Assembly (NCBI RefSeq): GCF_003018115.1
Contig: NZ_CP027457.1
From: Escherichia coli
GTDB taxonomy: Bacteria > Pseudomonadota > Gammaproteobacteria > Enterobacterales > Enterobacteriaceae
Direction: 5' to 3' (one strand)
DNA length: 64,000 nt
Below the pieces are notes generated by a model that searched no databases, was not told where the DNA came from, and was given only the letters and a program-made list of their open reading frames with translations. The position numbers were made by a program, and so were the translations under genes. This document shows positions 46,816 to 64,000 of the stretch, piece after piece (within the stretch, counting starts at the first letter, position 1; the number at the start of each line of letters is the position of its first letter).

Positions 46816-47316
46816 ATGAGCAAAAAATTTGAAGGCAGCGTCGCGCCTCGCGAGCGTATTAATATATCGTATGTCCCAAAAACAGATGGCCAGACGGCTG
46901 AAGTGGAACTTCCGCTTAACATGCTCGTTGTCGGCGATACCGGAAATACGCAGGAAACATCCCCACTGGATGAACGTCAGGCAGTTTCCGTTAACAAGCA
47001 CAATTTCGGTGCAGTGATGGCTGAAGCAGCCATTGGCCTCAATTTTACCGTCCCTGCCACACTGAAGGGAAGCACAACGGACGATGAGCTGAATGTGGCG
47101 CTGAATATCAAGTCACTGGATGATTTTTCACCAGATAGCGTGGCCCGGCAGGTTCCGGAAGTGAATAAATTGCTGGAACTGCGTGAAGCACTGACTGCAC
47201 TGAAGGGGCCGATGGGTAACCTTCCGGCATTCCGTACCCAGCTCCAGGCATTGCTGGAAAATGAAGAGTCCCGCGAGCAGTTGCTCAAAGAAATCGGCCA
47301 GGTGAGCAATAAATAA
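46816..47316 (+). CDS. tssB: T6SS sheath small subunit TssB (VipA)
   Basis: 166 aa MSKKFEGSVAPRERINISYVPKTDGQTAEVELPLNMLVVGD. Confidence 0.9.
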   Translation: MSKKFEGSVAPRERINISYVPKTDGQTAEVELPLNMLVVGDTGNTQETSPLDERQAVSVNKHNFGAVMAEAAIGLNFTVPATLKGSTTDDELNVALNIKSLDDFSPDSVARQVPEVNKLLELREALTALKGPMGNLPAFRTQLQALLENEESREQLLKEIGQVSNK

Positions 47317-47350
47317 CCACCACTATTTCATTAAACAGGGTTATCCAGGC

Positions 47351-47575
47351 ATGACGGCACACAAAAATATCTCCGGGACATACCACCTCTCTGTTGCAGA
47401 CATTCTGCAGGTGGTTTACCAGGTATGTTTCAGCCCGTCCGTTGAAATCAACCAGGATGGTGTGGCTGCGCTGATTACAACACTGGATCGCCGTATCAGT
47501 GATCTATTGGATGAGATTATCCATTTTTGTGAGTTTCAGCAGAGCGCGTCGCACTGGCAGCGCGTACTTCACTGA
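47351..47575 (+). other. 74-aa ORF paralogous to the N-terminal region of TssC (fragment or divergent duplicate)
   Basis: ...ALITTLDRRISDLLDEIIHFCEFQQSASHWQRV aligns to TssC ...SMIADIDERISRQMDVIIHAPAFQQVESFWRSL (~40-45% identity over ~60 aa). Confidence 0.45.
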
Positions 47576-47625: not shown

Positions 47626-49101
47626 ATGTCTTTACAGGAAGAGGAACTCGTTTCCAGTCATGCCGGGCAGCCTGAGCAGGCATCGTCGCTGCTTGATCAA
47701 ATCATGGCACAGACCCGTATTCAGCCCGGTTCGGAAGGTTATGACGTTGCCCGCCAGGGTGTGACAGCCTTTATTGCCAGCATCCTGCAATCCACTGCAT
47801 CTGCCGAACCGGTCAATAAACTGGCCGTGGACAGCATGATTGCAGATATTGATGAACGCATCAGCCGCCAGATGGATGTCATCATCCATGCGCCTGCCTT
47901 TCAGCAGGTCGAGTCGTTCTGGCGCTCACTGAAAACCATGGTGGATCGCGTTGATTTCCGTGAAAACATCAAGGTCAACGTGCTTCATGTCACCAAGCAG
48001 GAACTTCTGGAAGACTTTGAGTTTGCGCCAGAAATTATTCAGTCCGGATTTTATAAGCACGTTTATTCGTCCGGTTTCGGACAGTTTGGCGGTGAACCCA
48101 TCGCTGCCGTGCTGGGCGCTTATGAGTTCAAAAATACCGCGCCTGACATGAAACTGCTGCAATACGTCAGTGCCGTGGGCGCAATGGCGCACGCACCGTT
48201 CCTGTCCTCCGTTTCCCCGGAGTTTATGGGGCTGAACTCGTGGACCGAACTGCCTAATATCAAAGATCTTTATGCCATCTTTGAAGGTCCGGCCTACACC
48301 AAATGGCGCGCCCTGCGTGACTCGGAAGATTCGCGCTATTTAGGGCTTACGGCACCCCGCTTCCTGCTTCGCCAGCCCTATTCACCAACAGATAACCCTG
48401 TTAAGAACTTTAACTATTACGAAGATGTCAGCCAGAACCACGAAGATTATCTGTGGGGTAATACGGCCTGGATGCTGGCATGCAATATCGCAGACAGTTT
48501 TGCCAAATACCGCTGGTGTCCAAACATTATCGGTCCGCAAAGCGGCGGCGCAGTGAAAGATCTGCCGGTGCATCTGTTCGAAACGATGGGGCAGATTCAG
48601 GCCAAAATCCCAACCGAGGTGCTGGTCACCGATCGCCGCGAATTTGAACTGGCTGAAGAGGGTTTTATCACCCTTACCATGCGTAAAGACTCTGATAATG
48701 CAGCCTTTTTCTCTGCAAACTCGGTACAAAAACCGAAGCACTTTCCGGGAAAAGATGCAGAAACCAACTATAAGCTGGGTACGCAGCTTCCTTATCTCTT
48801 CATCATCAATCGGTTAGCGCACTACATCAAGGTGTTGCAGCGTGAACAACTGGGGTCATGGAAAGAAAGGAGCGACTTAGAAAGAGAGCTTAATACCTGG
48901 ATCCGTCAGTATGTTGCCGACCAGGAAAACCCGCCTGCAGACGTGCGCAGCCGCAAACCTCTGCGCGCTGCCAAAGTTGAGGTTATGGATGTAGAAGGCG
49001 AACCCGGCTGGTACCAGGTTGCGCTAAGCGTGAGACCTCATTTTAAATTTATGGGGGCAAATTTTGAGCTTTCCCTGGTTGGCCGGTTAGACAGGGAGTA
49101 A
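47626..49101 (+). CDS. tssC: T6SS sheath large subunit TssC (VipB)
   Basis: 491 aa; HAPAFQQVESFWRSL conserved TssC motif. Confidence 0.9.
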   Translation: MSLQEEELVSSHAGQPEQASSLLDQIMAQTRIQPGSEGYDVARQGVTAFIASILQSTASAEPVNKLAVDSMIADIDERISRQMDVIIHAPAFQQVESFWRSLKTMVDRVDFRENIKVNVLHVTKQELLEDFEFAPEIIQSGFYKHVYSSGFGQFGGEPIAAVLGAYEFKNTAPDMKLLQYVSAVGAMAHAPFLSSVSPEFMGLNSWTELPNIKDLYAIFEGPAYTKWRALRDSEDSRYLGLTAPRFLLRQPYSPTDNPVKNFNYYEDVSQNHEDYLWGNTAWMLACNIADSFAKYRWCPNIIGPQSGGAVKDLPVHLFETMGQIQAKIPTEVLVTDRREFELAEEGFITLTMRKDSDNAAFFSANSVQKPKHFPGKDAETNYKLGTQLPYLFIINRLAHYIKVLQREQLGSWKERSDLERELNTWIRQYVADQENPPADVRSRKPLRAAKVEVMDVEGEPGWYQVALSVRPHFKFMGANFELSLVGRLDRE

Positions 49102-49107
49102 CACACC

Positions 49108-49521
49108 ATGATACCGGATCGGGAAAGAACCACAGGTTCTCTTTTTGAGCGTATGGAAGCCTCTTCGGCCAGAAACCGGCAGGGAGGCAGTATTCATTCG
49201 CTCAGGCAATCCATTCGCCAGAACCTACGAAACATTCTTAATACCCGGTCCGGTAGTTGCCGGGGTGCGCCTGAGCTGGGCATTGATGAACCGGAAGGGG
49301 CTGAAAACTTCCGCGAATCCATGAGTCGGGCCATCGAGCAATGTATAGAACGCTATGAACCCCGGATCTCACACGCTGAAGTGCAGGCAGTGGTTTCATC
49401 CGCCTCCAGCCCGCTGGATATGACGTTTCATATTACAGCCTGGGTGACATTTAACGAAACGCATGAGGTGCTTGAATTTGATATGGCACCGAATGGCAGC
49501 CAGCATTACCGGGTGGACTGA
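49108..49521 (+). CDS. tssE: T6SS baseplate protein TssE (gp25-like)
   Basis: 137 aa; position after tssC. Confidence 0.8.
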   Translation: MIPDRERTTGSLFERMEASSARNRQGGSIHSLRQSIRQNLRNILNTRSGSCRGAPELGIDEPEGAENFRESMSRAIEQCIERYEPRISHAEVQAVVSSASSPLDMTFHITAWVTFNETHEVLEFDMAPNGSQHYRVD

Positions 49522-49524: not shown

Positions 49525-51375
49525 ATGGAATTTGAAGAACGCTATTTTCGGGAAGAACTCGATTACCTGCGCCAGCTTAGCAAGCTGCTGGCAACGGAAA
49601 AACCCCATCTGGCCCGCTTCCTGGCCGAAAAAGATGCGGATCCGGATATTGAACGCCTGCTGGAAGGGGTGGCTTTTCTTACCGGCAATCTCCGCCAGAA
49701 AATTGAGGATGAATTCCCAGAACTGACGCACGGGCTTATTAAGATGCTATGGCCTAATTACCTGCGTCCGGTTCCGGCAATGACCCTTATTGAATATACG
49801 CCGGATATGGATAAGTCTTCTGTACCGGTGTTAATCCCCCGTAATGAGCAGTTTACAACCAACGCCGGGGAAATCAGAGTTGATGAAGTGCTGCCCTCTG
49901 ATGCTAAAAAGGAGGAGCCGCCTCCCTGTACCTTCACCCTCTGCCGGGATATCTGGCTGCTGCCCGTTCGCCTGGAGCAGATTGAAAACCGCAGTACGAC
50001 CCGTAATGGTGTTATCAACATCACCTTTTCGGTCGCACCGGGAACGGATTTCCGCACGCTGGATCTGAACAAACTTCGCTTCTGGCTCGGCAATGACGAC
50101 AACTATACCCGTGACCAGCTTTATTTATGGTTCTGCGAATACTTGCAGGGTGCCGACCTGACTGTGGGTGAACAGCATATTCGCCTGCCTGAGTTTATGC
50201 TAAAAGCTGTCGGTTTTGAGCCGCAGGATGCCATGCTGCCCTGGCCGAAAAACGTCCACAGCGGCTACCGGATCCTTCAGGAGTATTTCTGTTACCCCGA
50301 TGCGTTTCTCTTTTTTAATCTTTGTGGTTGTCCGGCTTTGCCTGACGGATTGCAGGCGGAATTCTTTACCCTGCAACTGCGTTTTTCGCGCCCTTTGCCC
50401 GTGGACATCCGGCTGCGCCGCGATTCCCTGCGCCTGTATTGCGCACCTGCCATTAATTTATTTATCCACCATGCAGAAGCCATCACGCTGGACAACCGGC
50501 GGGCAGACTATCCGCTGGTTCCCAGCCGCCATTACCCACAACATTACGATGTATTTTCCGTTAACAGTGTGGTGAGCCAGGTCCAGGATATGTTCAGGAA
50601 AAAAGATCTGGGGCGTCCTGTTTCGACGCAGGCCGCGCGCCAGTGGCCAGCCTTTGAAAGTTTCAGCCATCAGATGGAATACAGCCGGAAGCGGGAAGTG
50701 GTGTACTGGCATCACCGGACCAAAACATCCCTGTTCCATCGCGGCTTTGATCATACCCTTGCCTTTATACATGCTGATGGCAGTTATCCGTCAGACGAAT
50801 CTCTGCTCAGTAATGAAGTGGTTTCGGTATCGCTGACCTGTACCAACCGTGAGCTTCCGTCACAAATTCGTTCCGGCGATATCACCGGCACAACCGGTAA
50901 AAATGCGGCTGTTGCTTCATTTCGCAACATTACCCGCCCGACGCAACCACTCTGGCCGGTCATTGATGGCAGCCTGCACTGGTCCCTACTCTCCGCCATG
51001 AACCTGAATTATCTGTCATTACTGGATACGGACGCGCTGAAGCAGGTCATCGCCAACTTTGATCGCCACGCAATCCATCATCCGCAGACGGCACGGCTGT
51101 CACAACAAAAGCTGGATGCCATTGAGCGTCTGGAGACCCGCCCCGTTGATCGCCTGTTTACGGGTATTCCCGTCCGGGGGCTGGCCTCCACGCTGTATCT
51201 GCACCCGGAGCCGTTTGTCTGTGAAGGGGAAATGTATCTGCTCGGTACGGTGCTTTCGCATTTTCTGTCGCTGTACGCCAGCGTTAACTCATTCCACATG
51301 CTGACCGTTGTGAACACAGAAAGCCAGGAGACATGGAAATGGACGGAAAGAATCGGGCAGCATCCTCTTATCTGA
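49525..51375 (+). CDS. tssF: T6SS baseplate protein TssF
   Basis: 616 aa; position and size. Confidence 0.85.
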   Translation: MEFEERYFREELDYLRQLSKLLATEKPHLARFLAEKDADPDIERLLEGVAFLTGNLRQKIEDEFPELTHGLIKMLWPNYLRPVPAMTLIEYTPDMDKSSVPVLIPRNEQFTTNAGEIRVDEVLPSDAKKEEPPPCTFTLCRDIWLLPVRLEQIENRSTTRNGVINITFSVAPGTDFRTLDLNKLRFWLGNDDNYTRDQLYLWFCEYLQGADLTVGEQHIRLPEFMLKAVGFEPQDAMLPWPKNVHSGYRILQEYFCYPDAFLFFNLCGCPALPDGLQAEFFTLQLRFSRPLPVDIRLRRDSLRLYCAPAINLFIHHAEAITLDNRRADYPLVPSRHYPQHYDVFSVNSVVSQVQDMFRKKDLGRPVSTQAARQWPAFESFSHQMEYSRKREVVYWHHRTKTSLFHRGFDHTLAFIHADGSYPSDESLLSNEVVSVSLTCTNRELPSQIRSGDITGTTGKNAAVASFRNITRPTQPLWPVIDGSLHWSLLSAMNLNYLSLLDTDALKQVIANFDRHAIHHPQTARLSQQKLDAIERLETRPVDRLFTGIPVRGLASTLYLHPEPFVCEGEMYLLGTVLSHFLSLYASVNSFHMLTVVNTESQETWKWTERIGQHPLI

Positions 51376-52421
51376 GTCCGGGAAATCCCCCGGCAGATAA
51401 AGAGCAGAATGATCCGCTGGCACAGGTTTTCCATAATGCCTGCTCTTACAATTTTTTTGCGATGGCGGAGCTGTTGCACCGCCTGGCAAAGGGTGAAAAG
51501 GGGACGCCAGAATTATCCCTGCGCGACGATCCGGCACAGGAAACCCTGCGTTTCAGCGCCGATGCCAGCCTTGCCTTCCCGTGCAGTGATATCAGTGCGC
51601 TGAAACGGGATACGTCAGGGGCATTCAGGATGACCACCACCTTTATGGGGTTACAGGGGAGCCAGTCGCCTCTCCCCGGTTATTACCTCGATCACCTGGC
51701 CTGGAAAGCGGTACATGAACAAAGTCCGGTAGGTGATTTTCTGGATATGTTCAGCCACCGCCTGACCCAGTTTGTCTGGCATATCTGGCGTAAGTACCGC
51801 TATCACATCAGTTTTCGTAACGGCGGTGTGGATGCGTTCTCGCAGCGCATGTACTCCCTTGTCGGGCTGGGCCACCGCCAGCTTCGCGATAAGCTGGCGA
51901 TTAATCACAGCAAAATGCTGGCGTATTCCGGGATCCTGGCAAATCCGGGACGATCCCCGGAAATTATCTGTGGCCTGGTGTCCCACTGCTTTGATTTGTC
52001 AGAAGTGACGCTGCAAAACTGGCAACGTCGCAAGGTGGATATTGAACCGGATCAGCAAAATAGTCTGGGGAGCTATTCTCTTAAAAATGGCGAAAAACTG
52101 GCGGGAAGATCGGTACTGGGCAACTTTGTTCTGGGTACACAAGTGCCCGATCTCAGCGGAAAATTCCAGCTCAGTATTACCAGCCTGACCCGAAAACAGT
52201 TCCTCTCTTTTCTGCCGTCCGGCGAAAACTTCCTGCCACTGACGATGTTCGTGTCCTTCATCCTGCGCGATCAGCTTGCCTGGGACTTACATCTGGGGCT
52301 GGCGCCGGAGCAGGTGGGCGCAATGCGCCTGGGCGATAACAAAAGTGCGCTGCTGGGCTGGACCAGCTTCCTCGGCACACCGGAAGAACGCCCCTCAGTC
52401 ACCATCAGGGTACGGTCGTAA
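51333..52421 (+). CDS. tssG: T6SS baseplate protein TssG
   Basis: 362 aa; overlaps tssF end; exact start uncertain. Confidence 0.8.
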   Translation: MEMDGKNRAASSYLSPGNPPADKEQNDPLAQVFHNACSYNFFAMAELLHRLAKGEKGTPELSLRDDPAQETLRFSADASLAFPCSDISALKRDTSGAFRMTTTFMGLQGSQSPLPGYYLDHLAWKAVHEQSPVGDFLDMFSHRLTQFVWHIWRKYRYHISFRNGGVDAFSQRMYSLVGLGHRQLRDKLAINHSKMLAYSGILANPGRSPEIICGLVSHCFDLSEVTLQNWQRRKVDIEPDQQNSLGSYSLKNGEKLAGRSVLGNFVLGTQVPDLSGKFQLSITSLTRKQFLSFLPSGENFLPLTMFVSFILRDQLAWDLHLGLAPEQVGAMRLGDNKSALLGWTSFLGTPEERPSVTIRVRS

Positions 52422-52424: not shown

Positions 52425-53726
52425 ATGATAATCACGGAGCAGAATATGCCGGAAGAGAAACTACAGACGCTTTCATTGCAGGTCATTAACGGCAGTGAGC
52501 TGGAAAGCGGGCGGGCGGCGCGCTGTCTGTTCACACAGCAGGGAAATGTCGGCCATGGCCCCGAATGCCACTGGTCGGTACAGGATCGTCAGCAGAGCAT
52601 TCCGGCCCAGGCTTTTACCGTTATCCTGCACGATGGCACATTTTGTCTACGCCCGCAGACGGCACAACTGTGGCTGAATCAGGCAAAAGTCACAGCAACA
52701 TCAGACCTGATACAGTTGCGCCAGGGCGATGAGATCCAGATCGGACGGCTGATGGTGAGGGTTCATCTGAACCGGGGAGATATTCCCCATTACGATGAGG
52801 AAATGGCCACTCCCGAAACCATCGTTACCAATCGCGATATGCTCACGGATACCCTGCTATCAACGGAGGGTGCGCCACACTATCCGGGAATGACTCACCG
52901 GCACCAGCTTGCAGACACCGTGGTAAACGGTTTTTCTGCCGATCCACTCCAGGCACTTCAGTCCGAAAGCCTGATTACCACGGGCGATCCGCTTTCAGGC
53001 ATTGCGGCTGTCCGGCCATCGGCACCGCTGTCCGATCCGGCAAGTAATGGGGGGATCAATACTCCGTTTATGGATCTGCCGCCCATTTATGCCAGCCCCG
53101 GCGATCGTAATGACGACGTCTCTGCGGCAGAAATGGCGCAACGCCACCTTGCGGTCACCCCCTTACTGCGCGGTCTTGGCGGCTCGCTTACCATGAGCAA
53201 TTCCGACGATGCGGATGATTTTCTGGAGGAGGCCGGACGAACGTTACAGGCCGCAATAAAAGGTCTGCTCGATTTGCAGCAGCAGCGTAACAGCCTCTCA
53301 GACAAACATTTGCGCCCGCTGGAAGATAACCCGCTGCGCCTGAACATGGATTACGCCACCGCGCTCGACGTGATGTTTGCCGAAGGTAAAAGCCCGGTAC
53401 ATCTGGCGGCTCCCGCCGCCGTCAGTGAAAGCCTGCGCAATGTCCGCCACCACGAAGAAGCTAACCGGGCAGCAATTGTGGAGTCGCTTCGTGTCCTGCT
53501 GGATGCTTTCTCACCACAAAATCTGCTGCGCCGCTTTGTGCAGTACCGCCGCAGCCATGAACTGCGCCAGCCGCTGGATGATGCCGGAGCATGGCAAATG
53601 TACAGCCATTATTACGAAGAACTGGCCTCCGATCGCCAGCAGGGGTTTGAGATGCTGTTTAACGAGGTCTACGCCCAGGTCTATGACCGGGTGCTTCGTG
53701 AAAAACAGCGGGAGCCGGAAGCATGA
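52425..53726 (+). CDS. tagH: T6SS FHA-domain protein TagH (Fha)
   Basis: 433 aa; N-terminal FHA-like region (LSLQVINGSELESGRAARCLF...LHDGTFCLRP...NQAKV). Confidence 0.7.
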   Translation: MIITEQNMPEEKLQTLSLQVINGSELESGRAARCLFTQQGNVGHGPECHWSVQDRQQSIPAQAFTVILHDGTFCLRPQTAQLWLNQAKVTATSDLIQLRQGDEIQIGRLMVRVHLNRGDIPHYDEEMATPETIVTNRDMLTDTLLSTEGAPHYPGMTHRHQLADTVVNGFSADPLQALQSESLITTGDPLSGIAAVRPSAPLSDPASNGGINTPFMDLPPIYASPGDRNDDVSAAEMAQRHLAVTPLLRGLGGSLTMSNSDDADDFLEEAGRTLQAAIKGLLDLQQQRNSLSDKHLRPLEDNPLRLNMDYATALDVMFAEGKSPVHLAAPAAVSESLRNVRHHEEANRAAIVESLRVLLDAFSPQNLLRRFVQYRRSHELRQPLDDAGAWQMYSHYYEELASDRQQGFEMLFNEVYAQVYDRVLREKQREPEA

Positions 53727-54247
53727 ACAGGAAGGCGTTTCTGGCCTGCGTGCTGATGTGCGTCATATTAACCGGCTGCGAAACGGCGAAAAAAATCAGC
53801 GAGGTGATCAAAAACCCGGATATCCAGGTCGGGAGCCTGAAGGAGCAACCTTCGGAAATAACCGTCACCCTGCTGACTGAACCGGACACCAATACCAATG
53901 CGGAGGGTGAATCAGCCGCCGTGGATGTGCAACTGGTGTACCTGACTGACGACTCAAAATTGCAGGCAGCCGACTATGACCAGATAGCCAGTACGCCGCT
54001 ACCGGATGTGCTGGGTAAAAACTATATCGACCACCAGGATTTCAACCTGTTGCCGGACACCATCAAAACCCTGCCGCCGATAAAGCTGGATGAGAAAACG
54101 CAGTTTATTGGTGTCGTGGCCTATTTCTCCGATGACCAGGCCACTGAATGGAAACAAATCGAGACGGTGGAAGGAACCGGCCACCATTACCGCCTGCTGG
54201 TGCATGTACGTCAAAGCAGCATCGAAATGAAAAAAGAGGATGAATAA
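53723..54247 (+). CDS. tssJ: T6SS outer-membrane lipoprotein TssJ
   Basis: 174 aa; lipobox LTGC after signal peptide. Confidence 0.85.
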   Translation: MNRKAFLACVLMCVILTGCETAKKISEVIKNPDIQVGSLKEQPSEITVTLLTEPDTNTNAEGESAAVDVQLVYLTDDSKLQAADYDQIASTPLPDVLGKNYIDHQDFNLLPDTIKTLPPIKLDEKTQFIGVVAYFSDDQATEWKQIETVEGTGHHYRLLVHVRQSSIEMKKEDE

Positions 54248-54249: not shown

Positions 54250-55581
54250 ATGGCAACCACCCGCAATAAGGTGATGTGGCAGGAAGGGATGCTGATGCGC
54301 CCACACCATTTCCAGCAACAGCAGCGTTACAACGACTACCTGGATAACCAGCGTTTCCGGGCCATGAATGATTTATCCTGGGGATTTACCGAACTCACCC
54401 TCAACAATGAACTGCTGGCGCAGGGTAAGATCATGATTGACAGCGCGTCAGGCACACTGCCTGACGGCACCGTCTTTTCTATCCCCGACCAGGACGCACT
54501 GCCCGATCCGCTGCACCCGCAAAATTTTCCGGACGAAAGAAGCCGCAATATTTACCTCGCTCTGCCGGTCGCCAGTGATGTGAGAAATGAAATCAGCGAC
54601 GGGCGGCGAATCGGGCGTTACCGGCTGAATTATGCCGATGTCCGGGATCTGCATTCAGAAGAAGGCGACGCGCGAACACTGACGCTGGGACAACTGACGC
54701 CGCGCATTATGAGCGGTGCAGAAGATATGAGTGCCTATATTACGCTCCCGCTTTGCCGTATCAGCGATCGCCATGCCGACGGCTCCCTGACGCTGGATGA
54801 CGATTTTATCCCCTCCTGCCAGAATATTCAGGTCAGTAAGAAACTGCGTGTTTATCTCAAAGAGGTACAGGGGGCCATTGGCGGACGGGCAAGCGATCTG
54901 GCAAACCGTATTGGCTCTCCGGCGCAGAGCGGCATCGCGGATGTGGCGGAATTTATGATGTTGCAGTTGCTTAACCGTAACCAGACCCGGTTTACCCATC
55001 GCGCCCGCCGATCCCAGCTCCACCCGGAAGATTTCTACCTTGATCTTGCCGGGTTGCTGGGTGAACTGATGACCTTTACAGAGCCGTCACGCCTGCCCTG
55101 CCCGCTTGATGTGTATGATCATCATGACCTGACCAAAACATTTAAAACACTGTTACCGGAAGTCAAACGGGCGCTGCATACCGTACTGTCGCCAAGAGCG
55201 GTCAATCTGCCGCTGCATCTGCGTGACGGCATCTGGCAGGCCGATGTTCATGACTCGGAACTGCTACAGTCTGCCACCTTTGTACTGGCCGTGGCAGCAA
55301 ATATGCCTGTCGATCAGATCCAGCGTCAGTTTATCCAGCAGTCGAAAATTTCCTCGCCGGAAAAAATCCGCAATATGGTCAGTGTGCAGATCCCGGGTAT
55401 TCCTCTGCGCGCACTGATGGTGGCCCCCCGCCAGCTTCCCTACCATTCCGGGTTCAGCTATTTCGAACTCGACAAGAGCGGCCAGACCTGGACAGAAATG
55501 GCTGCCGCCGGGGCCGTTGCACTGCATGTATCCGGCAGTTTCCCGGATCTGAACATGCAACTGTGGGCGATAAGAGGGTAA
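54250..55581 (+). CDS. tssK: T6SS baseplate protein TssK
   Basis: 443 aa; position and size. Confidence 0.85.
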   Translation: MATTRNKVMWQEGMLMRPHHFQQQQRYNDYLDNQRFRAMNDLSWGFTELTLNNELLAQGKIMIDSASGTLPDGTVFSIPDQDALPDPLHPQNFPDERSRNIYLALPVASDVRNEISDGRRIGRYRLNYADVRDLHSEEGDARTLTLGQLTPRIMSGAEDMSAYITLPLCRISDRHADGSLTLDDDFIPSCQNIQVSKKLRVYLKEVQGAIGGRASDLANRIGSPAQSGIADVAEFMMLQLLNRNQTRFTHRARRSQLHPEDFYLDLAGLLGELMTFTEPSRLPCPLDVYDHHDLTKTFKTLLPEVKRALHTVLSPRAVNLPLHLRDGIWQADVHDSELLQSATFVLAVAANMPVDQIQRQFIQQSKISSPEKIRNMVSVQIPGIPLRALMVAPRQLPYHSGFSYFELDKSGQTWTEMAAAGAVALHVSGSFPDLNMQLWAIRG

Positions 55582-55585: not shown

Positions 55586-56347
55586 ATGGATGAGGGGTCA
55601 CTGTCTCTGCCACCATTTACCGGATACGACGAAAAAAGCCTGCGCGACTACCATCTCGCGCTTCGTGGCAACAGCCTGAATCCGATGATCGACGCGGCGA
55701 CGCCGCTACTCGGTATGGTAATGCGCCTTTCCACCATGAACAGCCAGACGATGCCGGAGCATCTTTTTGCTCAGGTGGTGACAGATGTTCAGGCCGTGGA
55801 GCAACTGCTTCAGGAACAGGGCTACGAACCGGGCGTGATTATCTCGTTTCGCTACATCCTCTGCACGTTTATTGATGAAGCGGCGCTCGGTAACGGCTGG
55901 TCGAACAAGAACGAGTGGATCAAGCAGTCATTGCTGGTCCATTTCCACAACGAAGCCTGGGGTGGCGAGAAAGTTTTCATCCTGCTGGAGCGCCTGATCC
56001 GTGAACCCAAACGTTACCAGGATCTGCTGGAATTTCTCTGGCTCTGTTTTTCTCTGGGATTTCGCGGGCGCTACAAAGTGGCAGTACAGGATCAGGGGGA
56101 ATTTGAGCAGATCTACCGCCGTCTGTACCACGTTCTGCATAAACTGCGCGGCGATGCCCCTTTCCCGCTGTTACACCAGGACAAAAAAACCCAGGGCGGG
56201 CGTTATCAGCTCATCAGTCGCCTGACTGTTAAACATATTTTTTGTGGTGGCGTTGTCGTGCTGGCGTTGTTTTACCTGTTCTATCTGTTGCGGCTGGACA
56301 GCCAGACGCAGGACATCCTGCACCAGCTAAACAAATTACTTCGATAA
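55586..56347 (+). CDS. tssL: T6SS membrane complex protein TssL (DotU)
   Basis: 253 aa with single C-terminal TM helix (GGVVVLALFYLFYLL). Confidence 0.85.
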   Translation: MDEGSLSLPPFTGYDEKSLRDYHLALRGNSLNPMIDAATPLLGMVMRLSTMNSQTMPEHLFAQVVTDVQAVEQLLQEQGYEPGVIISFRYILCTFIDEAALGNGWSNKNEWIKQSLLVHFHNEAWGGEKVFILLERLIREPKRYQDLLEFLWLCFSLGFRGRYKVAVQDQGEFEQIYRRLYHVLHKLRGDAPFPLLHQDKKTQGGRYQLISRLTVKHIFCGGVVVLALFYLFYLLRLDSQTQDILHQLNKLLR

Positions 56348-56355: not shown

Positions 56356-59127
56356 ATGATCCAGATTGATCTTCCCACGCTGGTAAAACGGCTGAACCTG
56401 TTCTCCCGCCAGGCGCTGGAGATGGCCGCCTCTGAATGTATGAGTCAGCAGGCTGCGGAAATTACCGTCAGCCATGTGCTTATTCAGATGCTCGCCATGC
56501 CACGCAGTGACCTGCGGGTTATTACCCGCCAGGGCGATATTGGCATGGAAGAGTTGCGCCAGGCGTTGACGGTAGAGAACTACACAACCGCCCGTTCTGC
56601 GGACAGCTACCCGGCGTTTTCCCCGATGCTGGTTGAGTGGCTTAAAGAGGGCTGGCTGCTGGCGTCGGCTGAGATGCAGCACAGCGAACTGCGCGGCGGC
56701 GTGTTGCTGCTGGCCTTGCTGCATTCGCCGCTGCGTTATATACCGCCTGCTGCCGCCCGGCTGTTGACCGGCATTAACCGTGACCGTCTGCAACAGGACT
56801 TTGTGCAGTGGACACAGGAGTCGGCGGAATCAGTCGTGCCGGATGCAGACGGTAAAGGCGCAGGCACACTGACGGACGGCTCTGACACCCTGCTTGCCCG
56901 CTACGCCAAAAACATGACCGCAGACGCCCGTAACGGCAGGCTAGACCCGGTACTGTGCCGCGACCACGAAATCGACCTGATGATCGACATTCTCTGCCGC
57001 CGCCGTAAAAACAACCCGGTGGTGGTGGGCGAAGCAGGCGTGGGTAAAAGCGCGCTGATTGAAGGGCTGGCGCTGCGCATCGTGGCAGGCCAGGTGCCGG
57101 ACAAACTGAAAAACACCGATATCATGACCCTTGACCTGGGCGCATTGCAGGCCGGGGCATCGGTGAAGGGTGAGTTTGAAAAACGCTTCAAGGGGCTGAT
57201 GGCGGAGGTCATTTCCTCTCCGGTGCCGGTCATTCTGTTTATCGACGAAGCGCATACCCTGATTGGCGCGGGCAACCAGCAGGGCGGGCTGGATATCTCC
57301 AACCTGCTGAAACCGGCGCTGGCGCGTGGCGAACTGAAAACCATCGCCGCCACCACCTGGAGCGAGTACAAAAAATACTTCGAGAAAGACGCCGCCCTGT
57401 CGCGCCGCTTCCAGTTAGTGAAGGTCAGCGAACCCAACGCTGCCGAAGCCACCATTATTCTGCGTGGTCTGTCGGCGGTCTATGAACGGTCTCACGGCGT
57501 GCTGATTGACGATGATGCCTTGCAGGCCGCAGCAACGCTGAGCGAACGTTATCTCTCCGGGCGTCAGTTACCGGACAAAGCGATTGATGTGCTGGATACC
57601 GCCTGCGCCCGTGTGGCCATCAACCTGTCGTCGCCGCCGAAGCAAATCTCGGCGCTGACCACTCTGAGCCACCAGCAGGAGGCGGAAATTCGCCAGCTTG
57701 AGCGCGAGCTTCGCATCGGACTGCGTACCGACACATCACGGATGACCGAGGTGCTGGTGCAGTATGATGAAACGCTGACGGCGCTGGATGAACTGGAAGC
57801 GGCCTGGCACCAGCAGCAGACGCTGGTCCGGGAGATTATCGCGCTGCGCCAGCAGTTACTGGGCGTGGCAGAGGACGATGCGGCGCCGTTGCCGGACGCA
57901 GATACCGTGGAGGATACGCAGCCAGAGTCAGAGTCAGAGTCAGAACAGGATAATACCGGTGCCGTACCGGCTGATGAGGCCGACAGAGAACAGCCGGAAG
58001 AGACCGCTGAAACAGTTTCCCCGGTACAGCGGCTGGCCCAGCTCACTGCCGAACTGGACGCCCTGCATAACGACCGGTTGCTGGTCTCCCCGCACGTCGA
58101 TAAAAAACAGATTGCGGCGGTGATTGCCGAATGGACCGGCGTGCCGCTCAACCGCCTGTCGCAGAATGAAATGTCGGTCATCACCGACCTGCCGAAATGG
58201 CTGGGCGACACCATCAAAGGCCAGGACCTGGCGATTGCCAGCCTGCATAAGTATCTACTGACCGCACGCGCCGACCTGCGTCGTCCGGGACGCCCGCTCG
58301 GTGCGTTCCTGCTGGCTGGCCCCAGCGGTGTGGGTAAAACCGAAACCGTCCTGCAACTGGCAGAGCTGCTCTACGGCGGTCGCCAGTACCTGACCACCAT
58401 CAATATGTCCGAATTCCAGGAGAAACACACCGTCTCGCGGCTGATTGGTTCGCCTCCGGGCTACGTTGGCTACGGTGAAGGCGGCGTACTGACCGAAGCG
58501 ATTCGCCAGAAACCCTACTCGGTAGTACTGCTCGATGAAGTGGAAAAAGCGCACCCGGATGTGCTCAACCTGTTCTACCAGGCGTTCGATAAGGGCGAAA
58601 TGGCAGACGGTGAAGGCCGCCTGATTGACTGCAAAAATATCGTCTTCTTCCTGACGTCCAACCTCGGCTACCAGGTAATAGTCGAGCATGCCGATGACCC
58701 GGAAACCATGCAGGAAGTACTGTATCCGGTGCTGGCCGACTTCTTCAAACCTGCCCTGCTGGCGCGTATGGAAGTGGTGCCGTATCTGCCGCTGTCGAAA
58801 GAGACGCTCGCCACCATTATCGCCGGGAAACTGGCCCGTCTGGATAACGTGCTGCGCAGTCGCTTTGGTGCAGAAGTGGCCATTGAACCGGAAGTGACGG
58901 ACGAAATCATGAGCCGCGTCACCCGCGCGGAAAACGGCGCGAGGATGCTGGAATCGGTCATCGATGGCGACATGCTACCGCCGCTCTCGCTGCAGCTGTT
59001 GCAGAAAATGGCGGCTAACACGGCGATTGCCCGGATTCGGTTGTCGGCAGTGGACGGCGCATTTACGGCAGACGTGGAAGATGCTCAGAACGACGAGTCC
59101 GTCACAAAGGATGAAACGGTTTTATGA
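56356..59127 (+). CDS. clpV: T6SS AAA+ ATPase ClpV (TssH)
   Basis: Two AAA modules: Walker A GEAGVGKSA and GPSGVGKTE; start set at MIQIDLPTLVKRLN (in-frame internal ATG of ORF 56242). Confidence 0.9.
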   Translation: MIQIDLPTLVKRLNLFSRQALEMAASECMSQQAAEITVSHVLIQMLAMPRSDLRVITRQGDIGMEELRQALTVENYTTARSADSYPAFSPMLVEWLKEGWLLASAEMQHSELRGGVLLLALLHSPLRYIPPAAARLLTGINRDRLQQDFVQWTQESAESVVPDADGKGAGTLTDGSDTLLARYAKNMTADARNGRLDPVLCRDHEIDLMIDILCRRRKNNPVVVGEAGVGKSALIEGLALRIVAGQVPDKLKNTDIMTLDLGALQAGASVKGEFEKRFKGLMAEVISSPVPVILFIDEAHTLIGAGNQQGGLDISNLLKPALARGELKTIAATTWSEYKKYFEKDAALSRRFQLVKVSEPNAAEATIILRGLSAVYERSHGVLIDDDALQAAATLSERYLSGRQLPDKAIDVLDTACARVAINLSSPPKQISALTTLSHQQEAEIRQLERELRIGLRTDTSRMTEVLVQYDETLTALDELEAAWHQQQTLVREIIALRQQLLGVAEDDAAPLPDADTVEDTQPESESESEQDNTGAVPADEADREQPEETAETVSPVQRLAQLTAELDALHNDRLLVSPHVDKKQIAAVIAEWTGVPLNRLSQNEMSVITDLPKWLGDTIKGQDLAIASLHKYLLTARADLRRPGRPLGAFLLAGPSGVGKTETVLQLAELLYGGRQYLTTINMSEFQEKHTVSRLIGSPPGYVGYGEGGVLTEAIRQKPYSVVLLDEVEKAHPDVLNLFYQAFDKGEMADGEGRLIDCKNIVFFLTSNLGYQVIVEHADDPETMQEVLYPVLADFFKPALLARMEVVPYLPLSKETLATIIAGKLARLDNVLRSRFGAEVAIEPEVTDEIMSRVTRAENGARMLESVIDGDMLPPLSLQLLQKMAANTAIARIRLSAVDGAFTADVEDAQNDESVTKDETVL

Positions 59128-59867
59128 GCAGGTTGCGCGTTTTCCGGCAGACAGGATGGTTTATCGCGGGCCTGATGACGGGCTTACCCGCCACTGCCGC
59201 GCCCGCAGAAGCATCGTCAATGGCCAGTGTGGCGGTCGCCGTCGCCACCACGACCCCGCCGGATGCGACAGCCACGTTACAGGCCATGCAGTCCTGTCGG
59301 CGGGAGTCCGCGGCGCTGGAGCGGCTTGACTGCTATGACCGCCTGCTGGCACCGCTGTCCCCGTCAGGGTTTGACGGGGCGCTGGTCAAAGCCGGTTTTG
59401 TGGGCGAGGCCTGGACCCGCGCCACAGAGCAGGAAAAACGCCGCGAGGGCAACACCACAGAACTGCTGGTGACGCAGGTGCCGGGGGAGCGCCCGACGGT
59501 GGTGATAACCACCCCGGCTATCGGCCATGTTCCGCCGCGCCCGGTGCTGATGTTCAGTTGCGTGGACAATATCACCCGGATGCAGGTGGCGCTGATGCAC
59601 CCTCTGGATGTCCATGATATCGCCGTCACTCTGAATGCCGACAGCCGGGCATTGCGCAGCCACTGGTTTGTGCGCGAGAACGGCACCCTGCTGGAGTCCA
59701 GCCGGGGGCTGTCCGGGATTGATGAAATTAAGCAACTGTTCGGCGCAAAAACGCTGACAGTGGATACCGGCGCAGATAACGCCGCAGGAAAGCTGACCTT
59801 TAACATTGACGGGCTGGCAAGGGCGATTGCCCCCCTGCGCGATGCCTGCCACTGGGCGGGAGAATAA
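59124..59867 (+). CDS. T6SS-associated periplasmic protein (VasI/TagO-like), function unknown
   Basis: 247 aa with signal peptide; overlaps clpV stop and precedes tssA. Confidence 0.5.
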   Translation: MSRLRVFRQTGWFIAGLMTGLPATAAPAEASSMASVAVAVATTTPPDATATLQAMQSCRRESAALERLDCYDRLLAPLSPSGFDGALVKAGFVGEAWTRATEQEKRREGNTTELLVTQVPGERPTVVITTPAIGHVPPRPVLMFSCVDNITRMQVALMHPLDVHDIAVTLNADSRALRSHWFVRENGTLLESSRGLSGIDEIKQLFGAKTLTVDTGADNAAGKLTFNIDGLARAIAPLRDACHWAGE

Positions 59868-59871: not shown

Positions 59872-61284
59872 ATGGCAATGGACTTACGCGATCCGAATGT
59901 CTGGATATCGCACCTGCTGGAAAACCTGCCAGAAGAAAAACTGGCATCGGCGCTGAAAGATGACAACCCGAACTGGGAGTATATCGACGGCGAAATCGTC
60001 AAACTGGGATCTCTGGCCCACAGTCAACTGGATATCCCGGAACTCCAGCGCCGGGGGCTGGTCATTCTGGCTTCGGAGAGTAAGGACTTTCGTCTGCTGG
60101 CGCATCTGCTGAGAACCCTGCAACACGCCGGTGATCCTCATCTCGCATTGCGCCTGCTGGCGCTGTATGTGGAGCATTACTGGTCGGTGGCTGCGCCGCA
60201 GAATATGGCACATAAAAAACGCTTTGCCAGCCAGGTCATTAAACGCTTTGAAACAGGTATTGAAGGCTTTTCACAGAACGCCGCCACAGCGCAGCGCGAC
60301 GCGCTGTCAGGGGAACTGGCGAAACTGGCGCAGTGCTGGCAGTCACATAACGCCCCGGAACTGGCACTGGCTACCGATGATCTTTTTGCCCTGTACCAGC
60401 GTGCGTTTAATCGTGCGGCACCGGCTCCTGCCCCCACTCCGGCGGCCTCCGATAGTTCACCACAGACCACCGCCACGTCTGAAAGCGGCGTGACGCAACC
60501 CAGTGCTCCGACTCCCCAAATCGCCATCGACAGTCACGACGACAAAGCCTGGCGCGACACGCTGTTAAAAGTGGCGGCTATTTTATGTGAACGCCAGCCG
60601 GACTCGCCGCAGGGCTATCGCCTGCGCCGCCATGCCCTGTGGCAATCCATCACCAGTACACCCCAGGCGGAAAGCGATGGACGTACCCCATTGGCTGCGG
60701 TCTCTGCCGATATGGTGGCGGATTACCAGTCCCGGCTTGCCAGCGCGGATATGGCGCTGTGGCAGCAGGTTGAGAAAAGCGTATTGCTGGCTCCTTACTG
60801 GCTGGACGGTCACTGTCTTTCTGCACAGACGGCACTGCGTCTGGGTTACAAACAGGTGGCAGACACCATCCGCGATGAGGTCATCCGCTTCCTTGAGCGT
60901 CTGCCCCAGCTTACCGGGCTGCTGTTTAATGACCGCACACCGTTTCTCAGTGAGCAGACGAAACAATGGCTGGCTGCTTCGCCCGACGGCAAAGTTGCAC
61001 CGGTTGCGCAAATCGGTGAGGAATCGCAGGCAGCCAGAGCCTGTTTTGCTGGGCAGGGTCTGGAGGCGGCGCTGCGATATCTGGACATGCTACCCGAAGG
61101 CGATCCCCGCGATCAGTTTCACCGCCAGTACCTTGCCGCACAGTTGACGGAGGAGGCGGGGCTGATACAGCTTGCGCAGCAACAGTACCGGATGTTGTTG
61201 ATGATAGGGAGTCAGATGATGGTGTCTGACTGGGAGCCATCATTACTTACGCAGCTTGAACAAAAATTCACGGCAGAACAATAA
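59872..61284 (+). CDS. tssA: T6SS protein TssA (ImpA N-terminal domain)
   Basis: Start MAMDLRDPNVWISHLLENLPEEKLASAL with GGGAG RBS; ~470 aa. Confidence 0.8.
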   Translation: MAMDLRDPNVWISHLLENLPEEKLASALKDDNPNWEYIDGEIVKLGSLAHSQLDIPELQRRGLVILASESKDFRLLAHLLRTLQHAGDPHLALRLLALYVEHYWSVAAPQNMAHKKRFASQVIKRFETGIEGFSQNAATAQRDALSGELAKLAQCWQSHNAPELALATDDLFALYQRAFNRAAPAPAPTPAASDSSPQTTATSESGVTQPSAPTPQIAIDSHDDKAWRDTLLKVAAILCERQPDSPQGYRLRRHALWQSITSTPQAESDGRTPLAAVSADMVADYQSRLASADMALWQQVEKSVLLAPYWLDGHCLSAQTALRLGYKQVADTIRDEVIRFLERLPQLTGLLFNDRTPFLSEQTKQWLAASPDGKVAPVAQIGEESQAARACFAGQGLEAALRYLDMLPEGDPRDQFHRQYLAAQLTEEAGLIQLAQQQYRMLLMIGSQMMVSDWEPSLLTQLEQKFTAEQ

Positions 61285-61302
61285 AAGAGAACAGGAGTTT
61301 TT

Positions 61303-64000
61303 GTGTTCAGATTACCAACACCCCGACTACTCAGCGGACTCAAATCAGCCCTACGCCCGGCGATGCCCCGGTTTAAAGTCTCCGCTTTCTGGCTGCTGAT
61401 ACTGGCGTGGATTTTTCTGCTGGTATGGATCTGGTGGAAAGGCTCGACGTGGACGCTGTATGAAGAACAGTGGCTCAAACCACTGGCGAACCGCTGGCTG
61501 GCAACGGCGGCATGGGGGATTATCGCCCTGGTGTGGCTTACCGTCCGGGTGATGAAGCGCCTGCAACAACTTGAAAAAATGCAAAAGCAGCAGCGCGAGG
61601 AGGCCATTGATCCGCTCAGTGTGGAGCTGAACGCCCAGCAGCGTTACCTTGACCGCTGGCTGCTGCGCCTGCAACGCCATCTCGACAACCGCCGTTTCCT
61701 GTGGCAGTTGCCGTGGTATATGGTCATCGGCCCGGCGGGCAGTGGCAAAACGACACTGCTGGGCGAGGGGTTTCCGTCAGACATTATTTATGCCCCGGAA
61801 GGCGCGCGCGGCACAGAACAACGCCTGTACCTTACGCCCCATGTCGGTAAACAGGCGGTGATCTTTGATATCGACGGCACACTCTGCGCTCCCGCTGATG
61901 CGGATATCCTGCATCGCCGTCTGTGGGAACATGCCCTCGGCTGGCTGAAAGAAAAGCGCGCGCGCCAGCCGCTGAACGGGATTATTCTGACACTCGATTT
62001 ACCCGATCTGCTTACCGCAGACAAACGCCGCCGCGAGCATCTGTTACAGACGCTGCGCAGCCGCTTGCAGGATATACGCCAGCATCTTCACTGCCAGTTA
62101 CCGGTTTACGTGGTACTCACCCGGCTTGATTTATTGCAGGGTTTTGCCGCCCTGTTCCAGTCACTGAACAGACAGGATCGCGATGCGATTCTGGGCGTCA
62201 CGTTCACCCGCCGCGCCCATGAAAATGATGACTGGCGAACAGAGTTGAATGCTTTCTGGCAGACATGGGTGGATCGAATGAACCTAGCGTTGCCGGATCT
62301 GATGGTCGCTCAGACTCACACCCGCGCGTCTTTATTTAGTTTTTCCCGCCAGATGCAGGGAAGCCGTGAACCGCTGGTGTCACTGCTTGAGGGTCTACTT
62401 GATGGCGAAAATATGAACGTGATGCTGCGTGGTGTCTATCTCACCTCTTCGCTTCAGCGTGGACAGATGGATGATATATTCACCCAGTCTGCCGCCCGCC
62501 AGTACCGGCTGGGCAATAACCCACTGGCGTCCTGGCCTCTGGTGGACACCGCGCCTTATTTCACCCGCAGCTTGTTCCCGCAGGCATTACTCGCAGAGCC
62601 TAATCTGGCAACGGAGAGCCGCGCCTGGCTGATGCGTTCCCGTCGCCGCCTGACGGTTTTCTCTACCACAGGAGGCGTGGCGGCACTGCTGCTCATCACC
62701 GGCTGGCATCACTATTACAACGGTAACTATCAGTCCGGCATCACCGTGCTTAAGCAGGCCAAAGCCTTTATGGATGTGCCGCCTCCACAGGGGGAAGATG
62801 ACTACGGCAACCTGCAACTGCCGCTGCTGAACCCGGTACGCGATGCCACACTGGCCTATGGCGACTGGGGCGACCGCAGCCGTCTGGCCGATATGGGACT
62901 GTACCAGGGACGACGTATCGGGCCTTATGTGGAACAGACCTATCTGCAACTGCTGGAGCAACGTTACCTGCCCTCGCTGTTTAACGGGCTGGTTAAAGCG
63001 ATGAATGCCGCGCCGCCGGAGAGTGAAGAAAAACTCGCGGTGCTGCGCGTGATGCGAATGCTGGAGGACAAAAGCGGACGTAACAATGAGGTGGTGAAGC
63101 AGTATATGGCAAAACGCTGGAGCGAAAAGTTCCACGGCCAGCGCGATATCCAGGCACAACTGATGTCCCATCTTGACTACGCGCTGGCTCATACTGACTG
63201 GCACGCAGAGCGTCAGGCGGGCGACGGTGACGCCATCAGCCGCTGGACGCCATATGACAAGCCCGTGGTATCAGCACAGAAAGAACTGAGCAAACTGCCT
63301 GTCTACCAGCGGGTTTACCAGAGCCTGAAAACGCGGGCGCTGGGCGTTCTTCCTGCCGACCTCAATCTGCGTGACCAGGTAGGGCCAACCTTTGACCAGG
63401 TGTTTACATCTGCCGATGACAACAAACTGGTTGTTCCACAGTTTCTTACCCGTTACGGCCTGCAAAGCTATTTTGTAAAACAGCGCGATGAACTGGTTGA
63501 ACTGACGGCGATGGATTCCTGGGTACTTAACCTTACCCGCAGCGTGAAATACAGTGACGCCGACCGCGCGGAAATCCAGCGCCAGCTCACCGAGCAGTAT
63601 ATCAGCGACTACACCGCCACCTGGCGGGCCGGGATGGACAATCTGAATATCCGCAATTTTGAGTCCATCGGACAACTGACCGGGGCGCTGGAGCAGGTTA
63701 TCAGCGGCGACCAGCCTTTGCAGCGGGCGCTGACCGTGCTGCGTGACAACACACAGCCAGGCGTCTTTTCTGAAAAACTCTCTGCCAAAGAACGGGATGA
63801 GGCCCTGGCAGAGCCGGACTACCAGTTACTCACCCGTCTCGGGCATGAGTTCGCCCCGGAAAACAGTACCCTGGCAGTACAGAAAGACAAAGAAAGCACG
63901 ATGCAGGCAGTATATCAGCAACTCACCGAGTTGCACCGCTACCTGCTGGCAATCCAGAACGCGCCTGTACCAGGGAAATCGGCGCTGAAAGCCGTGCAGT
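61303..64000 (+). CDS. tssM: T6SS membrane complex protein TssM (IcmF), N-terminal ~900 aa; partial, runs off window end
   Basis: GTG start VFRLPTPRLL; TM helices then Walker A GPAGSGKTT; open frame to 64000, not in ORF track because no stop in window. Confidence 0.85.
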   Translation, partial: MFRLPTPRLLSGLKSALRPAMPRFKVSAFWLLILAWIFLLVWIWWKGSTWTLYEEQWLKPLANRWLATAAWGIIALVWLTVRVMKRLQQLEKMQKQQREEAIDPLSVELNAQQRYLDRWLLRLQRHLDNRRFLWQLPWYMVIGPAGSGKTTLLGEGFPSDIIYAPEGARGTEQRLYLTPHVGKQAVIFDIDGTLCAPADADILHRRLWEHALGWLKEKRARQPLNGIILTLDLPDLLTADKRRREHLLQTLRSRLQDIRQHLHCQLPVYVVLTRLDLLQGFAALFQSLNRQDRDAILGVTFTRRAHENDDWRTELNAFWQTWVDRMNLALPDLMVAQTHTRASLFSFSRQMQGSREPLVSLLEGLLDGENMNVMLRGVYLTSSLQRGQMDDIFTQSAARQYRLGNNPLASWPLVDTAPYFTRSLFPQALLAEPNLATESRAWLMRSRRRLTVFSTTGGVAALLLITGWHHYYNGNYQSGITVLKQAKAFMDVPPPQGEDDYGNLQLPLLNPVRDATLAYGDWGDRSRLADMGLYQGRRIGPYVEQTYLQLLEQRYLPSLFNGLVKAMNAAPPESEEKLAVLRVMRMLEDKSGRNNEVVKQYMAKRWSEKFHGQRDIQAQLMSHLDYALAHTDWHAERQAGDGDAISRWTPYDKPVVSAQKELSKLPVYQRVYQSLKTRALGVLPADLNLRDQVGPTFDQVFTSADDNKLVVPQFLTRYGLQSYFVKQRDELVELTAMDSWVLNLTRSVKYSDADRAEIQRQLTEQYISDYTATWRAGMDNLNIRNFESIGQLTGALEQVISGDQPLQRALTVLRDNTQPGVFSEKLSAKERDEALAEPDYQLLTRLGHEFAPENSTLAVQKDKESTMQAVYQQLTELHRYLLAIQNAPVPGKSALKAVQ

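Follow-up and report, generated by a model that had tools for sequence, protein, structure and literature searches.

The stretch examined here, 64,000 nucleotides of Escherichia coli DNA (RefSeq assembly GCF_003018115.1, contig NZ_CP027457.1; "the window" below means this whole stretch), carries a type VI secretion system (T6SS) operon that includes tagH, the gene of an FHA-domain protein. It raises a straightforward question: where are the kinase PpkA and the phosphatase PppA, which accompany such a protein in the H1-T6SS of Pseudomonas aeruginosa? We found that the cluster is the E. coli T6SS-2, a Vibrio cholerae-type system on an island at the tRNA-Asp gene aspV, and that a TagH without PpkA and PppA is the standard arrangement of the V. 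cholerae-like class and no anomaly of the present locus. The missing partners are ordinary because the cluster belongs to this class, which lacks the pair. We are close to certain of the joint claim, namely the identity of the cluster together with the absence of PpkA and PppA. The outcome is thus plainly negative, an intact apparatus without the two partners, as is normal for clusters of this class. The lack of the pair beside an FHA gene is also already known, having been noted since 2009 and made explicit for E. coli O157 and V. cholerae.

The search for PpkA, PppA and TagF

A preliminary description of this DNA listed tssB, C, E, F, G, J, K, L, H and A and the start of tssM as present and contiguous, with hcp and vgrG divergent, and saw no kinase or phosphatase partner. 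When genes were assigned from the listing of open reading frames (ORFs) together with Pfam scans, each of these core genes gave a strong Pfam match, and hcp and vgrG both proved to lie on the minus strand. The operon is contiguous on the plus strand and all its ORFs are intact, with tssM open to the window edge. The earlier gene list had omitted vasI, in the interval between clpV and tssA, as well as a short ORF between tssB and tssC. The genes of the apparatus are as follows.

43249..45390, minus strand: vgrG, spike, 713 amino acids (Pfam Phage_GPD 1e-73, Gp5_trimer_C, Phage_base_V)
45600..46118, minus strand: hcp, tube protein, 172 amino acids (Pfam T6SS_HCP 5e-31)
46816..47316, plus strand: tssB, sheath small subunit (Pfam T6SS_VipA 1e-51)
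47351..47575, plus strand: ORF of 74 amino acids, like the TssC N-terminus (hypothetical in RefSeq; tblastn matches to the N-terminus of tssC, here and at other loci)
47626..49101, plus strand: tssC, sheath large subunit (Pfam VipB 2e-126, VipB_2)
49108..49521, plus strand: tssE, baseplate (Pfam GPW_gp25 6e-16)
49525..51375, plus strand: tssF, baseplate (Pfam T6SS_TssF 1e-129)
51333..52421, plus strand: tssG, baseplate (Pfam T6SS_TssG 2e-86)
52446..53726, plus strand: tagH (fha), 426 amino acids from the RefSeq start (Pfam T6SS_FHA_C 2e-41, FHA 22.2 bits)
53723..54247, plus strand: tssJ, lipoprotein (Pfam T6SS-SciN 1e-23)
54250..55581, plus strand: tssK (Pfam T6SS_VasE 4e-142)
55586..56347, plus strand: tssL, DotU short form (Pfam DotU 1e-57)
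56356..59127, plus strand: clpV (tssH), AAA+ ATPase (Pfam AAA_2, AAA_lid_9, ClpB_D2-small)
59124..59867, plus strand: vasI, accessory gene (Pfam VasI PF11319 4e-53)
59872..61284, plus strand: tssA, VasJ type (Pfam T6SS_VasJ 2e-70, ImpA_N)
61303..64000, plus strand: tssM, first ~899 codons, no stop to base 64000 (Pfam IcmF-related, IcmF-related_N; start GTG at 61303 with AGGAG upstream)

Kinases and PP2C phosphatases were sought among all ORFs of the window, of four E. coli loci, of 80 related loci and of all other fetched loci, 2.1 Mb in total. We used phmmer with a T6SS-linked PpkA/PppA pair, regular expressions for catalytic motifs, and hidden Markov models (HMMs) built from six T6SS-linked kinases and five PP2Cs. 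As the phmmer search relied on a single atypical pair, it was judged too narrow, and the motif expressions and HMMs were used in its place. All three kinds of scan came back empty for the whole 64-kb window, in which neither a Ser/Thr kinase nor a PP2C phosphatase was found, as the preliminary description had indicated. Likewise, neither the window nor the E. coli loci extending as far as dnaQ contained a detected or annotated Hanks-type kinase PpkA, and the same scans revealed no PP2C phosphatase PppA there. TagF is also absent: each ORF of the cluster falls in another family, and none is annotated as TagF downstream in the four genomes. Canonical clusters such as those of Azospirillum, Leisingera, Pseudoalteromonas and Sphingomonas do contain tagF.

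Matches to kinases or PP2Cs were confined to canonical control clusters, and every one of these controls (10/10) had at least one. The sensitivity of the PP2C HMM appears adequate because it detected the PP2C of control locus L095, on which it had not been trained; as an untrained control for the kinase HMM, two further kinase-like ORFs were later picked up. A regular-expression match to PP2C in locus L030 was dismissed as chance, since it fell in an antisense ORF and was unseen by the HMM.

Given that the window stops inside tssM, and that canonical clusters carry the pair directly after tssM or tagF (in the metagenomic contig L003, Leisingera, Pseudomonas frederiksbergensis and Sphingomonas), ppkA and pppA could lie just past the edge, in which case the system would be regulated by threonine phosphorylation in the ordinary way. 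The preliminary description had allowed for the pair being either beyond tssM or absent, and proposed looking downstream of tssM. We did so in four complete E. coli genomes that share this cluster (NCTC9112, SCU-316, EC1515 and O157:H7 Sakai), three of which are among the top matches, at 99.5-99.6% identity over the tssA-tssM segment. In all four, the genes that come after tssM are one with a VasL domain, hcp, small ORFs, a DUF1311 gene, the tRNA-Asp gene aspV and dnaQ, and the interval from tssM to aspV/dnaQ contains neither a kinase nor a phosphatase; ppkA and pppA are therefore absent and not hidden past the edge. Of the two options, then, absence held and a position beyond tssM did not. 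The published report that the pair is missing from the E. coli O157 and V. cholerae clusters (PMC8993066) and the lack of phosphothreonine-binding residues in TagH, described below, point the same way, and we consider a pair just past the edge extremely improbable. Because the pair is absent, activation must differ from the PpkA/PppA pathway, as had been supposed.

The identity of the cluster follows from its setting and its gene order. The whole window aligns with E. coli NCTC9112 at 98-99% identity, from yagU/pao through fadE-ivy-yafV into the cluster, and, of 5426 complete E. coli genomes, 3196 match its last 3 kb (the tssA-tssM segment), with a highest identity of 99.6%. The left flank of the island (yafV/ivy/fadE) lies inside the window. 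Its right flank (aspV, dnaQ) is seen in near-identical genomes only, because the window ends inside tssM; O157:H7 Sakai has an identical cluster layout adjoining aspV. The Pfam assignments give the T6SS-2 or V. cholerae-like order, tssB-C-E-F-G-tagH-tssJ-K-L-clpV-vasI-tssA-tssM with a divergent hcp-vgrG, and T6SS-2 is the name given to such an organisation in E. coli (PMC10711316). In this species rhs genes are specific to T6SS-2 (PMC10711316), and here an Rhs gene of 1501 amino acids stands beside vgrG.

The closest known system is the T6SS of enterohaemorrhagic E. coli (EHEC) O157:H7 (z0243-z0275 in EDL933, ECs_0212-ECs_0237 in Sakai), which shares with the window the species, the aspV site, the gene order, vasI and the divergent hcp-vgrG-rhs. 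In Sakai tagH is annotated as ImpI (ECs_0227) and encodes 426 amino acids, as in the window, and neither has ppkA or pppA. The differences between the two are allelic only: Sakai has a tssA pseudogene and other Rhs and insertion sequence content, whereas the window has an intact tssA and an Rhs C-terminus of its own. The V. cholerae cluster (VCA0107-VCA0123, with Fha/TagH as VCA0112) resembles that of the window in its order, tssBCEFG-tagH-tssJKL-clpV-...-vasI-tssA-tssM-vasL, and in having a TagH without PpkA, PppA or TagF. It differs in that V. cholerae and many relatives carry vasH between clpV and vasI, which E. coli lacks. The same layout was also found at locus L006 and at Salinivibrio and V. 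maritimus loci. P. aeruginosa H1-T6SS (PpkA/PppA/Fha1/TagF/TagQRST) shares the core apparatus and the three-part architecture of Fha/TagH, but has the kinase, the phosphatase and TagF, none of which is present here.

To see how widely this arrangement holds, related loci were collected by a genome scan with a TagH alignment as the query and one genome per species. This gave 80 loci, each covering 10 kb on either side of tagH and so ending inside or near the end of tssM. TagH was chosen as the anchor since TssA is poorly conserved (27-34% identity) and TssM would have cut off the FHA domain in clusters that contain vasH; ClpV was rejected because it would pull in ClpB. The loci span Citrobacter, Salmonella-like Enterobacteriaceae, Yersinia, Serratia, Photorhabdus, Xenorhabdus, Proteus, Morganella and Aggregatibacter. 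In all 80 the gene order is constant, with hcp on the minus strand followed by tssBCEFG-tagH-tssJKL-clpV-(vasH)-vasI-tssA-tssM, and in none (0/80) did we detect a kinase or PP2C within the 10 kb on either side. The statement that an FHA-domain TagH usually works with PpkA/PppA, made in the preliminary description, is thus too general, as it applies to only part of the TagH family. This agrees with the literature. Boyer et al. 2009 (PMC2660368) described sub-group I, which contains the V. cholerae locus, as being without the PpkA/PppA/Fha mechanism, and Wang et al. 2022 (PMC8993066) noted for V. cholerae, E. coli O157 and Y. pestis that their clusters have an FHA gene and lack ppkA and pppA. 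V. cholerae encodes neither PpkA nor PppA, yet its Hcp secretion needs TagH (2023 review, PMC10482370).

The FHA domain of TagH

If the partners are missing, what does the FHA domain of TagH look like? The preliminary description gave the protein 433 amino acids; an ORF of that length does exist from 52425, but the RefSeq start at 52446 yields 426. An AlphaFold2 model, built with a 39-sequence alignment, together with Foldseek and Pfam searches, divides these 426 residues into three regions (pLDDT is the predicted local distance difference test score).

52464..52775, plus strand: FHA-fold domain, residues 7-110 (pLDDT above 95, Foldseek, alignments)
52830..53114, plus strand: disordered linker, residues 129-223 (pLDDT below 50; composition)
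53124..53711, plus strand: helical C-terminal domain, residues 227-422 (Pfam PF20232; helices in the model)

The first region is modelled as a beta-sandwich, and its top Foldseek matches in the PDB were all FHA domains (engineered and Rad53 FHA1, OdhI, GarA and FhaA; probability 1.0, target TM-score 0.6-0.8). By sequence it is harder to recognise. Pfam FHA (PF00498) was a marginal pass, at 22.2 bits against a gathering threshold of 20.7, and the precomputed Pfam annotation of close relatives lists PF20232 only. A PDB sequence search with TagH alone returned no match; it took a family profile to reach FHA structures. The linker is rich in Pro, Leu, Asp, Thr and Ser and is the least conserved of the three regions across the 80 loci. 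The helical region is the best conserved (mean identity 67%), and in TagH of the window it scored 142 bits (2e-41) against T6SS_FHA_C (PF20232). The model and the structural matches show that TagH keeps the three-part Fha architecture, in which an FHA fold at the N-terminus is connected through a disordered linker to a helical C-terminal domain, and this bears out the earlier assignment of an FHA domain to this protein; the Fha of Acidovorax citrulli is built in the same way (bioRxiv 10.1101/2023.12.21.572528).

In canonical FHA domains phosphothreonine is held by a Gly-Arg, by a Ser-x-x-His and by the Asn of an (S/T)-N-G loop. To locate these positions, E. coli TagH was aligned with canonical TagH proteins and, via the family profile, with M. 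tuberculosis FhaA (PDB 3po8), using the flanking motifs GG-x-IG, W-x-L-x-D, F-C-L and I-N-G as anchors. In the alignment His37 stands at the Arg position, Pro53 at the Ser, Ala56 at the His, and Ala73 at the Asn in a shortened TNG loop. The spacing of 16 between His37 and Pro53 equals that of the pairs studied experimentally, R32/S48 of P. aeruginosa Fha1 and R30/S46 of Agrobacterium Fha, both of which are needed for Hcp secretion (PMC3953482; PMC8993066). These alignments show that the residues for binding phosphothreonine have been lost from the FHA domain here. The loss is not peculiar to E. coli: V. cholerae TagH has S38 and K54 at the pocket positions occupied by His37 and Pro53 here (PMC8993066), and among about 85 representatives of TagH clustered at 50% identity only three retain the canonical set. 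Nearly all of the 80 loci have His or Ser in place of the Arg; in three it is Cys, and two TagH sequences are truncated there. The FHA His is kept in most Vibrio-type TagH proteins and lost in E. coli (Ala56). The domain is nevertheless still under constraint: N15, L19, S21, G22, G33, G36, W43, Q46, D47, D63, C67, N78 and D95 do not vary across the 80 loci, with E20 present in 99%.

These replacements bear on a further possibility, namely that a chromosomal Ser/Thr kinase acting in trans (YegI with the PP2C-like PphC, or another) marks a component of T6SS-2, which TagH would then read in a non-canonical manner. E. coli does encode the eukaryote-like kinase YegI and the PP2C-like phosphatase PphC (bioRxiv 10.1101/819920, 10.1101/303594), and unidentified kinases have been raised for V. 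cholerae TagH (PMC10482370). Replacing S38 and K54 of V. cholerae TagH by alanine, moreover, lowers Hcp secretion (PMC8993066), and in the enteric clade His37 is a conserved residue. Nevertheless, all four of the canonical positions that contact phosphate or peptide are replaced or deleted in E. coli TagH, phosphorylation of V. cholerae TagH was not detected (PMC8993066), and V. cholerae Fha condenses in E. coli without its own system. The accessory Fha of Agrobacterium tumefaciens, like TagH of V. cholerae, is needed for secretion, and there it binds the membrane-complex protein TssL, but this binding requires PpkA, Thr14 of TssL and R30/S46 of Fha (PMC3953482). The window has neither PpkA nor the pocket Arg or Ser, and the N-terminal tail of TssL, where the acceptor Thr14 lies in Agrobacterium, is not conserved, with no conserved Thr across the 80 related loci. 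We regard a kinase in trans as unlikely.

In contrast to the Arg-less TagH proteins described so far, some TagH relatives retain the pocket Arg, and their clusters were fetched to look for counterexamples (n=10). The linked genes in each are given here.

Metagenomic contig L003: PP2C and kinase after tssM
Azospirillum: kinase and PP2C
Rhizobium etli: kinase and PP2C
Caballeronia: adjacent PP2C; within the range fetched, no kinase was seen
Leisingera: kinase and PP2C
Bradyrhizobium: kinase
Pseudoalteromonas: kinase and PP2C
Vibrio tubiashii: kinase-like ORF after tssM
Pseudomonas frederiksbergensis: kinase and PP2C
Sphingomonas: tagF, PP2C and kinase

A linked kinase, PP2C or both thus accompany the Arg-bearing TagH in 10/10 clusters, against 0 of about 90 for the Arg-less TagH, a set that comprises the 80 loci, the window, the four complete E. 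coli genomes, L006, Salinivibrio, V. maritimus and a plasmid-borne Campylobacter system. Sphingomonas parapaucimobilis, which has the Arg pocket and no kinase within 14 kb, was considered as a counterexample and rejected, as its cluster is split and tssM-tagF-PP2C-kinase lie further along. Metagenomic contigs L004 and L008 contain TagH relatives and were too short to show the neighbouring genes. The Campylobacter system is on Campylobacter coli plasmid pCOS503, where a 299-amino-acid FHA-domain protein directly follows tssM (L101 13935-14834) and lacks the pocket Arg (Gly-Ser). No kinase or PP2C was found within 14 kb of it, and this plasmid T6SS may represent a second, independent kinase-less lineage.

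Assembly, control and neighbouring genes

How might such a system be assembled and switched on? The explanation that, as a whole, fits best is that T6SS-2 is natively without PpkA, PppA and TagF, and that its TagH, with a degenerate pocket, serves as a phosphorylation-independent scaffold in a system under transcriptional control; we hold this with good confidence. The scaffold role itself we consider reasonably probable. TagH would bring membrane-complex and baseplate proteins together independently of phosphorylation, as reported for the kinase-less V. cholerae Fha. The latter forms dynamic condensates when expressed in E. coli and is required for foci of the baseplate protein TssG; condensation of Fha is reportedly independent of phosphorylation (bioRxiv 10.1101/2023.12.21.572528).

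The on/off decision would then be made mainly at transcription. One candidate control is H-NS silencing of the AT-rich region between hcp and tssB, which we name because the cluster also lacks VasH, the sigma-54 activator of V. cholerae: vasH is not found between clpV and vasI, which overlap directly (59124-59127), and among the 80 related loci no more than about a dozen have it. The EHEC 37-kb island is a functional T6SS repressed by H-NS, and Hcp is secreted once hns is deleted (PMC5363993). At 33% G+C, compared with about 55% in the operon, the hcp/tssB region fits this silencing and is a plausible H-NS target. No match to a sigma-54 site (TGGCAC-N5-TTGCW) was found in the region, and matches across the window were at chance level; sigma-70-like matches in the region were not above chance either.

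It could be argued that none of this matters, TagH being a decaying remnant, or the cluster inactive, and the missing partners functionally meaningless. The FHA domain barely passes the Pfam cut-off, related strains carry pseudogenes (a frameshifted VasL-domain gene in three of them and a tssA pseudogene in Sakai), and the EHEC cluster is almost silent in vitro (PMC5363993). Several observations speak against such decay. Every ORF of the cluster is intact here, the predicted FHA fold has very high confidence, many of its residues are invariant in 80 species, and the C-terminal domain is more conserved still; in addition, TagH is required in V. cholerae, and EHEC secretes Hcp upon hns deletion. 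We therefore judge decay or inactivity to be very unlikely.

Beyond the apparatus itself, three further features were delimited.

38291..38668, minus strand: ORF of 125 amino acids abutting the rhs stop (from the ORF list; a weak DUF7674 match is below cut-off)
38668..43173, minus strand: Rhs-family effector, 1501 amino acids, downstream of vgrG (Pfam RHS_repeat 1e-73, DUF6531, RHS core)
46119..46815, no strand: divergent hcp/tssB control region, 697 bp, 33% G+C (computed)

The C-terminal ~210 amino acids of the Rhs protein matched no Pfam family, and the ORF of 125 amino acids is, from its position, a possible immunity gene. Downstream of rhs are an intact ISAs1-family transposase (378 amino acids) and a truncated copy (175 amino acids). 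Together with the Rhs C-terminus and the ORF of 125 amino acids they occupy 36113-37822 and 38291-39300, both on the minus strand. It is in this segment, at about 36.7-39.5 kb, that the window departs from NCTC9112.

The ORF of 74 amino acids between tssB and tssC looks like a partial duplicate of the 5' end of tssC. It resembles the N-terminal ~60 residues of TssC, with 36% identity to tssC of the same locus (tblastn), is common to E. coli and to Citrobacter, Yokenella and Atlantibacter loci (L013-L016), and also matches the tssC N-terminus in other genera. Regarding tssM, RefSeq places the start in near-identical genomes at a CTG at 61393, with an ATG at 61363 and a GTG at 61303 also in frame; the annotated start is probably too far downstream, because the GTG at 61303 has AGGAG 6 nt upstream. 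Small polymorphisms separate the E. coli clusters. The clpV gene measures 2772 nt in the window and in Sakai and 2760 nt in NCTC9112 (L001 15369-18128), a 12-nt in-frame indel. The VasL-domain gene after tssM is frameshifted in NCTC9112 (L001 23839-25249), SCU-316 and EC1515 (L011/L012 12839-14249) and intact in Sakai, and tssA, intact in the window, is the annotated pseudogene of Sakai at L093 20971-22382. Further from the cluster, window positions ~24800-27300 align to a part of NCTC9112 (L002 26165-28634) annotated with lafU beside an N-terminally truncated flhA, a pair that resembles what would be left of a lateral-flagella gene cluster. Close by, the NCTC9112 annotation has truncated prfH and rtcB fragments as well as frameshifted pepD and yafP.

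Meaning for V. cholerae-type TagH proteins

Is the degenerate pocket a property of the lineage? We narrowly favour the view that TagH proteins across the entire kinase-less V. cholerae/E. coli T6SS-2 lineage carry a "pseudo-FHA" domain, whose pocket was lost together with PpkA, PppA and TagF. The Arg would have become His or Ser, the Ser variable, the TNG loop shorter, and the His, in enterics, Ala or Gln. Another surface of the domain, which would include N15, L19-E20-S21-G22, W43 and Q46-D47, would then recruit Tss proteins independently of phosphorylation. This contradicts the working assumption of PMC8993066 that phosphopeptide-binding residues are conserved at the pocket positions.

Several points weigh against our interpretation and should be kept in mind. 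The absence of the pair downstream of tssM was read from near-identical genomes and not from the source strain, whose sequence in the window ends inside that gene. For the 80 related loci, coverage stops inside or near the end of tssM, and for most kinase-less loci in the comparison of pocket Arg and partners it ends at tssM; the contrast of 10 with ~90 is, in addition, phylogenetically non-independent, as most kinase-less examples come from one lineage. The scaffold mechanism has been carried over to E. coli from Acidovorax and V. cholerae (a preprint). Finally, the effect of the S38 and K54 substitutions in V. cholerae implies that the pocket face of the FHA domain still matters, which leaves room for a non-canonical phospho-ligand, and His37 could in principle contact an anion.

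For T6SS biology more broadly, the pocket Arg of TagH provides a simple sequence test for a T6SS that is likely to be gated by phosphorylation, since it tracked the linked kinase or phosphatase perfectly in the sample examined. Conversely, our results suggest that phosphothreonine binding should not be taken for granted in the FHA domain of a V. cholerae-type TagH.

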